A stretch of 64,000 nucleotides of DNA from Nitrospirota bacterium (GTDB taxonomy: Bacteria; Nitrospirota; UBA9217): contig CAWIYV010000008.1 in the NCBI GenBank assembly GCA_963840455.1, forward strand, positions 31,977 through 95,976. The letters are read 5' to 3'. The notes below the pieces were generated by a model, which saw only the letters and a list, made by a program, of their open reading frames with translations, was not told the DNA's origin and did not search any database. Position numbers and translations under genes: made by a program. Shown piece by piece: positions 46,572-49,694 of the stretch. Each line of letters opens with the position of its first letter. Position 1 is the stretch's first letter.

Positions 46572-46982
46572 ATGCGGTTTGCAATGGTTGTTGTTGCGGC
46601 GATCGCGCTGCTAGTGCTGACAGGCAGCAGCGTCTCTGCCCAGCAGACGCTGCTCGACTCGGTGGCAAAGGGATGCGAAAAAGAACTGACGACCCACTGT
46701 AAAGAGGTGACGCCCGGGGAGGGCAGGGTGCTTGCCTGCCTCTACGCATTCGAGGACAAGCTGTCCCCCAAATGCGAGTATGCTCTGTATGACGCGGCTT
46801 CCCAGCTTGAGCGTGCGGTGGCCGCCTTGTCCTACGCGGTGAACGAGTGCCGGGACGACTTGCAGAAGTTCTGCTCAGATACCAAACCCGGCCAGGGGCG
46901 TTTGCTGGTCTGTCTTAGCAAGAACGAAAAGAGTGTGACCAAACGCTGCAAGGACGCTCTCAAGGAAACGGGTCTGAAGTAA
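46572..46982 (+). CDS. Secreted cysteine-rich repeat protein (Cys_rich_FGFR/GLG1-like)
   Basis: Two 'C..E/D...C....PG.GR.L.CL' repeats; paralog of 27297. Confidence 0.85.
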   Translation: MRFAMVVVAAIALLVLTGSSVSAQQTLLDSVAKGCEKELTTHCKEVTPGEGRVLACLYAFEDKLSPKCEYALYDAASQLERAVAALSYAVNECRDDLQKFCSDTKPGQGRLLVCLSKNEKSVTKRCKDALKETGLK

Positions 46983-47700: not shown

Positions 47701-48225
47701 TCAGAACGCTATGGCAAAGATGATCTCGGGATAGGTGTCGCTGCAGGAAAGATAGACCGATTGGTCGCAGGAGAGATATTTCTCATAGACCACACCGGCA
47801 CCGAAGTAGCTGCCCTGTCCGGACACCAGATACAGGCCGGCGCGGCCTCCGGTGGAGTTGAGGTCATCGAAGTTATCGATCATGGTCCGTCGGTAGAAGG
47901 CGCCGACATAGGGCCTGAGCGCGCTGCCGGTGGGCACCACGTACCGCACAGACGGGCTGATCTTGGTGATGCCCGGATCGCTGCCCGACCAGAACTCTGC
48001 ATCCAGTCCAACTTCCAGCCCTTTTGCAAAGAAATACCCGACGCCGATGCCGACGATGAGATAGGACTCATTGAAGGCGTATCCGTTCCCGATGAGGACC
48101 GAGGCCCGCCCGCTGCCGCTGGAAAAGGGGTCCCTGTCTGCGGCAACGGCCGGCGGCACCGTGCAGAGCAGCACAAGGGTGAGGAGTGCAAGCATGGTGA
48201 TGGGGCGGATCGCGATCGGTAGCAT
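47701..48225 (-). CDS. Small outer-membrane beta-barrel protein
   Basis: Signal peptide, 'GVGYFF..GLEVG', 'PYVGAFY', C-terminal F; RBS GGAGG. Confidence 0.75.
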   Translation of the reverse strand: MLPIAIRPITMLALLTLVLLCTVPPAVAADRDPFSSGSGRASVLIGNGYAFNESYLIVGIGVGYFFAKGLEVGLDAEFWSGSDPGITKISPSVRYVVPTGSALRPYVGAFYRRTMIDNFDDLNSTGGRAGLYLVSGQGSYFGAGVVYEKYLSCDQSVYLSCSDTYPEIIFAIAF

Positions 48226-48537
48226 TGGACGGCACCTCCGGAAGAGAATGGCCTCCCCCCTGCGACAGGAAGCTTGTATGATGAAATTATAGGCGACCAG
48301 GTCAGTAAATGCAAGTGACCATGAATGCTTTCCTTCTGGCCTGGGAGGTTGGTCTCCTCAGGTACTGCTGCGGGGGCGCTCAAAAGACTGTTCAGCCCAA
48401 CATATCTTTGGTAATTTTGCTATAGTTACCTTAGAACTATTCCTTCAGGGAATCGCTGCATCCCGCCTGCCAAAAAATCAGATAGGAAACCGTACTGGAT
48501 ATGGGGAAATCGGTATTACATCCGAAGGGAGGCCGTT

Positions 48538-49371
48538 ATGAAAAAGCTAGATGAAGAACCCGGGTTGTGTTCGCGACGGAGCATCCTGACAGGGTCCGCT
48601 GTACTCCTGGCGGGAGGGCTTGTGGGGCGTGTCAGCAACGCCTTTGGTGCGGAAAAACCTGCAGTCGACAAGGCGCCGCCTCTGCCGTGGAAGTGGGTCA
48701 AGCTCGATCCGCTGGAGGCAGGCAGGAGGGCATATCGTGCCTACCTTGAACATGGCGGCTGAGGGAACGGAGCATGGCTGGGGGTCCTCAGCCTGTTGAA
48801 GGAAAAGGCCGGCCATCCCTGGACAACGCTGCCGGACCACATGTTCGCCCATGCCGCGGCAGGGTACGGCGGTCAGGGCACGCTGTGCGGCGCGCTCGGG
48901 GTCTGCAGCGCCCTCATCAACCTGGTGGAATACGACAAGGACAAGACCTATGCGGTCATGGTGGATGACCTGCTGGACTGGTATGCCAGGTCCTCGTTCC
49001 CCACGGACCGCTTCGATGACATCTCGAAGATGCCGAAGCAGATCCAGACCAAGGCAATGTCGCCGCTCTGCCATACATCGGTGTCAAAGTGGACCATGGC
49101 CGCGGGCGCGCAGGTCACCTCCAAGGAGAAAAAGGAGCGCTGCGCCAAGGTGACGGGCGAGGTCGTGTATACGACCGTCCACTATCTCAACCTCTACAAG
49201 GAAGGGAAATGGCAGCCCGTGAAATGGACGCCGAAGAAGGAGATCAGCCACTGCATCGATTGCCACGGGCCGGACGATATGTGGCATGAGAAGGGCGGCA
49301 TGAACCACCAGCAGGGTCATATGGACTGTTTGCTGTGCCACTCGGACCATACGAAAATATCCGCAAAGTAA
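48538..49371 (+). CDS. Tat-exported C-GCAxxG-C-C family (split-Soret cytochrome c-like) diheme protein, candidate selenoprotein (UGA at 48760-48762)
   Basis: 'SRRSIL' Tat signal; ORFs 48538 and 48796 are in frame and separated only by TGA in 'HGG*GNG'; 'GTLCGALG', 'PLCHTSV', 'ERCAKV'; CIDCH and CLLCH. Confidence 0.85.
48772..48796 (+). promoter_or_regulatory. Candidate bacterial SECIS element
   Basis: GCA-U(bulge)-GGCUGGG-[GGUC]-CUCAGCC-UGU; apical loop starts 21 nt after the UGA. Confidence 0.75.
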
Positions 49372-49456
49372 GTTCGTGCGGGAAAAGAAGCTCCTCGGAG
49401 CGATGGACATATTACCAGAGAAACGCGCGCTGTATGGGCTTGCTTGTCTTTGCTTG

Positions 49457-49694
49457 AATCCAGGAGCGAGCGCATTCCCCGAAGGGGTTAGCGAGCGATT
49501 AGGATAATAACCTGCCCTGAGGATCGAAGCTCCGCGCCTCTTGTAGTAGGGAGCTTAAATCCAGGAGCGAGCGCATTCCCCGTAGCTTGCTGCGGGGTCT
49601 TGCCCCCAGCGTTTGCGAGTGGAACCGCGAGTGCAGGGGATCAGCGAACGATCAGAATAAATATTCTTCCTCGATGATCGAAGATTCCCTGCAG
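49457..49694 (+). repeat. Repeat family A, two tandem units, the second with a ~40 bp insert
   Basis: Units at 49457 and 49558. Confidence 0.85.

Follow-up and report, generated by a model that had tools for sequence, protein, structure and literature searches.

Two apparent gene fragments in the genome of a Nitrospirota bacterium are almost certainly one mis-annotated selenoprotein gene, in which the stop codon between them is read as selenocysteine (Sec). The locus was found in a stretch of 64,000 nucleotides (hereafter the window, in whose numbering all positions are given). As a whole, the gene appears to encode a periplasmic diheme protein exported by the twin-arginine (Tat) route, and its UGA codon 75 is very probably decoded as Sec by the standard bacterial route. 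The evidence for decoding, drawn from sequence comparison, is strong, and a solved structure of a cysteine-containing relative makes the chemistry of the selenium site testable.

Under translation table 11, the gene is split into an open reading frame (ORF) of 74 amino acids (48538-48762) and one of 191 amino acids (48796-49371), both in the same frame. An earlier note on this DNA had described a single frame of 277 codons broken by TGA at codon 75, and that TGA was indeed found to be its sole interruption. The features of the gene are as follows.

48527-48532, forward strand: Shine-Dalgarno-like motif GGGAGG, 5 nt upstream of the ATG
48538-49371, forward strand: whole coding sequence, 277 codons including UGA-75, with the stop codon TAA at 49369-49371
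48760-48762, forward strand: UGA codon 75, very probably read as selenocysteine, aligned with an invariant Cys and recurring as TGA in relatives; the surrounding residues are ...LEHGG-U-GNGAWLGVLSLLK

TGA otherwise serves as an ordinary stop codon in the window, where it closes 20 of the 38 long non-overlapping ORFs and is the commonest stop; a recoded genetic code was rejected on this count. No promoter or terminator was found in a scan of 48200-49650. An Rfam scan of 48300-49600 (E ≤ 10) returned three chance-level matches, each to a eukaryotic or archaeal family, and nothing from a SECIS family.

The two closest database matches (95% and 88% identity) are C-terminal pieces of 191 and 176 amino acids, shortened in the same way as the window ORF. 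Public gene calls accordingly comprise a 191-residue piece (P0004, 'mono/diheme cytochrome c family protein') and a 176-residue piece (P0111). Such split or shortened calls mean that the selenoproteomes of Nitrospirota and of sulfate-reducer-type genomes are undercounted. They also leave an exported protein in public annotation without its signal peptide and without what would be its first metal ligand.

Probable selenocysteine and cysteine at codon 75 of relatives

The earlier note had proposed an alignment of homologs at codon 75, looking for Cys paired with UGA, and this pairing was found. All 23 aligned full-length database homologs (59-69% identical) carry Cys in the UGA column. A scan of species-representative genomes recovered 48 related loci, comprising 15 with TGA at the same codon, 30 with TGC or TGT (one of which loses its frame just after that codon) and three that were unclassifiable. 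Together with the window and a further genome, G007, the TGA set amounted to 17 loci with 16 distinct sequences, and the Cys set to 28 distinct forms. The TGA loci occurred in Nitrospirota/Thermodesulfovibrionales, Desulfobacteraceae and Syntrophobacteraceae. One more TGA form, again at the same codon, was present in a Thermodesulfobacteriota sample (G629) and shared 53% protein and 58.5% DNA identity with the window gene. The recurrence of TGA at this codon in 16 distinct sequences and in G629, from other assemblies, refutes an assembly error as its source.

Sequencing data were also consulted. From four runs, assembly at 85% likeness yielded nothing but short contigs belonging to relatives with 85-95% identity, and the best run matched no more than 0.23 of the sampled words. 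Contigs from an RNA library (X17) flank the TGA, and one of them spans 48757-48807; such libraries may contain DNA, so these contigs speak neither for expression nor for the identity of the bases at 48760-48762. In family genes of several metagenome-assembled genomes (L081, L082, L083, L084 and L085), the frame is lost part-way, probably through assembly indels.

A phylogenetic tree was built from 13 Sec forms, 26 Cys forms and two paralogs, with the fragmentary or frameshifted L078, L081, L082, L084 and L085 and the duplicates L042 and L063 omitted. The Sec forms grouped in a single clade (UFboot 93, SH-aLRT 52, 94% of bootstrap trees) and hence do not count as independent observations. Across the 39 family rows (13 Sec and 26 Cys forms), U75, C117 (in LCGALG), C178 and C202 are invariant. 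Residues specific to the Sec clade are G78, W80, F103, V122, V214, Y216 and L266, and W80 together with the invariant G82 is encoded by the 5' arm of a hairpin described below.

Protein architecture and the probable selenium site

The translated gene contains the following elements, all on the forward strand.

48538-48651, forward strand: probable twin-arginine signal peptide, with SRRSIL (residues 12-17, 48571-48588) followed by a hydrophobic stretch
48682-49176, forward strand: N-terminal domain of the C-GCAxxG-C-C type, residues ~49-213, with the Pfam match at residues 83-213
48886-48888, forward strand: family cysteine Cys117 (TLCGAL)
49069-49071, forward strand: family cysteine Cys178 (PLCHTS)
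49141-49143, forward strand: family cysteine Cys202 (ERCAKV)
49252-49266, forward strand: first haem c motif, C239-I-D-C242-H243, family-invariant and aligned to SCGECH of 1H21
49327-49341, forward strand: second haem c motif, C264-L-L-C267-H268, family-invariant and aligned to DCTPCH of 1H21

The twin-arginine signal, the three further cysteines (in LCG, LCH and RCA) and the two CxxCH motifs that the earlier note had listed are thus all present. Of the 46 extracted family members, 44 have an [ST]RR motif, and genes for TatC and for cytochrome c assembly are present in the genome. Cleavage of the signal peptide may fall near residue 38, which is a guess from the sequence. Passages in PMC4429474 and PMC3623810 describe twin-arginine signal peptides in split-Soret cytochromes, a feature that the window protein probably shares.

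The N-terminal domain scored 33.5 bits with Pfam PF09719 (C_GCAxxG_C_C), whose cut-off is 27, and the cytochrome-fused protein gave no match to TIGR01909 at E ≤ 0.1; membership in the C-GCAxxG-C-C family therefore holds at the Pfam level only. The best NCBIfam model was that of split-Soret cytochrome c (NF047622), which scored 144.6 bits. This value is below the equivalog cut-off of 400 bits, indicating that the protein belongs to a distinct subfamily and is a relative rather than an equivalog. The only solved relative is the split-Soret cytochrome c (Ssc) of Desulfovibrio desulfuricans ATCC 27774 (1H21, chain 1h21_A), with a sequence E value of 9.4e-28 over residues 49-270. The two proteins share the same two-domain layout and fold. 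Their alignment pairs all four positions of the N-terminal domain with Cys and matches both CxxCH motifs, with U75 opposite the Cys of GfGCGfG; the window protein differs from 1H21 in having UGA/Sec in place of this first Cys. The alignment to the mature chain begins at query residue 49, corresponding to chain residue 17, and residues 49-74 align to the ordered residues 17-43 of 1H21. The segment before the UGA thus lies within the folded domain and does not represent a separate peptide.

An AlphaFold2 model built from 26 sequences had a mean pLDDT of 65.5, with values of 83-93 for residues 51-90; its haem domain is of low confidence, with pLDDT below 50 for residues 244-263. The sole significant fold match of the model was again 1h21_A (E 4.1e-09, TM 0.58/0.66, 32% identity). 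By sequence and by predicted fold, then, the protein is distantly related to split-Soret cytochrome c, as the earlier note had suggested from kinship with the Desulfovibrio protein.

The 1H21 entry in the PDB mentions 'a novel iron centre' in its title. [quoted passage not shown] With this relative as the template, Sec would replace the first of four invariant cysteines that are the putative ligands of a non-haem iron centre, and selenium at that centre would tune its redox properties. Folding of the N-terminal domain around its cofactor would take place in the cytoplasm, and attachment of the haems in the periplasm; cytoplasmic insertion of the cofactor would explain export by the Tat route. 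We tentatively propose, at somewhat less than an even chance, that Sec75 is a direct ligand of a non-haem iron (iron-sulfur) centre in a Tat-exported two-haem cytochrome. If true, the Sec clade would offer a natural and structurally tractable case of a periplasmic electron carrier whose iron centre is ligated by selenium. The hairpin that SelB would recognize, being itself part of the coding sequence, would in that case also have reshaped the protein, with Tyr80 changed to Trp, Ala78 changed to Gly and Gly82 invariant.

A different role for the same residue is possible, though on balance unlikely. Sec75 could be a catalytic redox residue that ligates no metal, acting as a selenol or as a selenenyl-sulfide with a family Cys on a periplasmic substrate, while the haems supply electrons. 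Such a residue would have to work without a dedicated partner, as the Sec clade contains no invariant Cys beyond those of the four family positions and the two CxxCH motifs; a Sec-clade-specific resolving Cys was rejected accordingly. The iron centre named in the title of 1H21, with its four reported Cys ligands, and Tat export, which suggests cytoplasmic cofactor insertion, also speak against catalysis and for a metal site. On the other hand, Pfam describes PF09719 as a 'putative redox-active protein'. Most bacterial selenoproteins, according to the text of PMC1976440, moreover employ Sec either for thiol-type redox catalysis or for coordinating redox-active metals.

Whether as a ligand or as a catalyst, Sec75 has a Cys counterpart of solved structure in 1H21, and the Sec clade thereby provides a convenient Sec/Cys pair of natural origin. 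The pair lets one ask what selenium does at an iron site that is reportedly bound by four cysteines. Mutants of split-Soret cytochromes in D. alaskensis are described as showing no phenotype in a passage of PMC4215793.

Hairpin, selenocysteine machinery and translation of both parts

Downstream of the UGA, the earlier note had described a hairpin, which was recovered as described upon RNA folding.

48771-48797, forward strand: bSECIS-like hairpin, with the upper stem 48776-48782 paired to 48787-48793, the loop GGUC at 48783-48786, an unpaired U at 48775 and a weak, non-conserved lower stem

The folded element reads AGCA-U-GGCUGGG, the loop GGUC and CUCAGCC-UGUU, and has a free energy of -13.5 kcal/mol with a 7-bp stem, the unpaired U and three to four weaker pairs. 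Shuffled sequences folded as well in 5 of 200 cases for the 27-nt element (z -2.36), in 18 of 200 for 41 nt (z -1.46) and in 57 of 200 for 61 nt (z -0.50). By shuffling alone the hairpin is thus unremarkable, and its support beyond chance comes from comparison with relatives.

Counted from the UGA, the stem +17..+23/+28..+34 has all seven pairs in 13 of the 16 distinct Sec forms and six of seven in the other three (one mismatch in L044; 6 bp in L076 and L081). In the 28 distinct Cys forms, one to five pairs are formed at these positions, and the upper stem is present in none of them. The mean minimum free energy of +10..+42 is -11.9 kcal/mol for the Sec forms versus -5.9 kcal/mol for the Cys forms. 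In all 16 Sec forms, the apical loop begins with G 20 nt after the UGA and reads GGUC, GUAC, GUUU, GCUC or GUUC. Synonymous sites are fixed within the stem, where CTG accounts for 15 of 15 Leu codons, GGG for 16 of 16 codons and AGC for 16 of 16; the Sec forms differ in the Gly and Leu codons that border the stem. The hairpin of G629 is identical to that of the window. A 26-nt identical run (48769-48794) covers it, and the next longest identical run between the two sequences, of 11 nt, is at the UGA itself.

Section 5 of PMC13188914 gives as bSECIS criteria a loop of 3-9 nt, a stem of 4-16 bp, G in the first two loop positions, a spacing of 16-37 nt and a minimum free energy of at most -7.5. 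The window hairpin, with its GGUC loop, 7-bp stem, 20-nt spacing and -13.5 kcal/mol, falls within every one of these. A likeness to the E. coli fdhF SECIS in the unpaired U, the GGUC loop and the spacing had also been claimed, and was seen when the fdhF sequence (NC_000913.3) was folded: in both genes, the UGA is directly followed by a hairpin with a GGUC loop and a stem that holds an unpaired U. With numbering from the U of UGA, the loop occupies nucleotides 22-25 in fdhF and 24-27 in the window. The two differ in how far below the loop the unpaired U sits (3-4 bp in fdhF, 7 bp in the window), and in that the lower stem of the window hairpin is weak and not conserved. Within the aligned stem, 97.3% of cells are paired, no two-sided changes occur, four of the seven pairs are invariant and two vary on one side only. 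With no compensatory changes and four of seven pairs invariant, a formal covariation test carries no information here, and neither does its shuffle control. Shared ancestry and the amino-acid constraint on W-L-G...S-L could explain part of the conservation of the hairpin.

The earlier note had made its reading depend on selenocysteine machinery in the genome, and this was found. The genome of the window contains selB (383.5 bits), selA (606.9 bits) and selD (359.8 bits), all above curated cut-offs and with selB and selA adjacent, as well as two tRNA-Sec(tca) genes detected by ARAGORN. The selB gene scored above cut-off in four of the five other Sec-form genomes and in two of the five Cys-form genomes; it was not found in the TGA-form genome G007, which is 89% complete. 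With these components, SelB carrying Sec-tRNA(Sec) would bind the hairpin, whose loop starts with G at a distance of 20 nt from the UGA, and would bring Sec to the ribosome.

Several observations on the machinery itself were made in passing. Both tRNA-Sec genes (L014:1501-1599 on G000:C1 and L015:1500-1594 on G000:C9) match Rfam RF01852, at 66.5 and 52.9 bits. The selD gene (L010:1528-1530, G000:C14) has an in-frame TGA of its own, indicating a selenoprotein form of selenophosphate synthetase, and a G-first loop lies ~21 nt downstream of this UGA. The genome of L044 (G041) contains two selB-like genes above the TIGR00475 cut-off, at C1:2609930-2611819 (382 bits) and C1:1451941-1453836 (303.5 bits).

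Stem-loops 3' of stop codons can stimulate read-through, and the hairpin could by this general principle be a mere read-through stimulator, with UGA decoded by a near-cognate Trp or Cys tRNA or through a local recoding signal and no selenium involved. The stem also offers no covariation that would prove SelB binding. Such selenium-free read-through is nonetheless very improbable. The aligned residue is an invariant Cys, a classic Sec/Cys pair, and the hairpin conforms to the bSECIS type in geometry and loop rule and has a loop like the GGUC of fdhF. The genome contains the complete Sec machinery, and the distribution of selB among the other Sec-form genomes points the same way. The same genome furthermore encodes a small paralog of 146 amino acids (L090:1498-1500; G000:C14, ~332607-333041) with an in-frame TGA at the equivalent first family Cys (FS-U-AQAIL). 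This cytoplasmic-type C-GCAxxG-C-C protein matches, at 85.9 bits, the curated model TIGR01909, which NCBIfam titles 'C-GCAxxG-C-C family (seleno)protein'.

Least probable of all, and to be given hardly any weight, is that TGA acts as a true stop, which would make the locus a pseudogene or a 74-residue Tat-signal fragment followed by a 191-residue cytochrome starting at TTG 48796; this agrees with the C-terminal pieces P0004 and P0111 emitted by public gene callers and with TGA being the commonest stop in the window, but not with the presence of this very TGA in 16 distinct sequences and G629, down to 53% protein identity and with the frame intact on both sides. In the 28 codons before the TGA, comparison of the window with 14 Sec forms gave summed codon differences of 159 synonymous versus 43 amino-acid-changing. 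This excess of synonymous differences indicates purifying selection and hence translation of the upstream part, which holds the signal peptide and the residues aligned to the ordered segment of 1H21. Neither the signal nor the first family Cys would be part of the 191-residue piece, and sequence inspection found no Shine-Dalgarno-like motif upstream of TTG 48796.

Distribution, paralogs and catalogued family members

The gene has a patchy distribution. In an even sample of 401 genomes from the phylum of the window, an ortholog (E ≤ 1e-60) was present only in the window genome and in G007, both with TGA. Among 301 genomes from the phylum of G041, 31 genomes contained 34 matches to NF047622, two of them with an in-frame TGA. 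None of the five other species in the genus of the window yielded the gene, although it is present in distant phyla. This pattern of occurrence suggests horizontal transfer. The neighbouring genes were compared between eight loci and the window, and nothing was conserved among them, so the context gives no functional clue; sigma-54 activators flank the gene in two loci.

Selenoproteins of the C-GCAxxG-C-C family with Sec at the first conserved Cys have been catalogued before. The family appears in selenoprotein tables of PMC9312934 and PMC13188914 as 'form 1', from an Olavius symbiont, and 'form 2', and the text and legends of the Olavius symbiont study call form 1 a 'putative redox protein' (PMC1976440). 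The catalogued family shares the PF09719 domain with the window protein, and its small member in the same genome, the match to TIGR01909, likewise has TGA at the first conserved Cys. Judged from the TIGR01909 model (120 positions) and the 146-residue example, the known forms are small; the window protein differs from them in that it also carries a probable Tat signal as well as a two-haem c domain. The window gene is a cytochrome-fused, exported member of a catalogued family, and the decoding mechanism itself is ordinary. The window protein may be identical with the catalogued form 1, a comparison drawn from the text and legends describing that form. A literature search of article texts found no paper on a selenocysteine form of a split-Soret cytochrome. 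Haem and periplasm are not mentioned in the accessible portions of the two papers found on GCAxxG selenoproteins (PMC9312934 and PMC13188914). The accessible texts on split-Soret cytochromes, searched for 'iron-sulfur' and '2Fe-2S', contain nothing on selenium and do not state the nature of the iron centre.

Further members of the family and of the neighbourhood were also observed. The small 146-residue paralog has a hairpin with the loop GGUCU ~36 nt after its UGA. A Cys-form paralog in the same genome (L041; G000:C11:74392-75108) is 35% identical and has a Tat motif, the four Cys positions and one CxxCH before its stop. Upstream of the gene, positions 46572-46982 of the window (forward strand) encode a secreted-looking protein of 136 amino acids that matches PF00839, 'Cysteine rich repeat' (Cys_rich_FGFR), with an E value of 1.4e-14.
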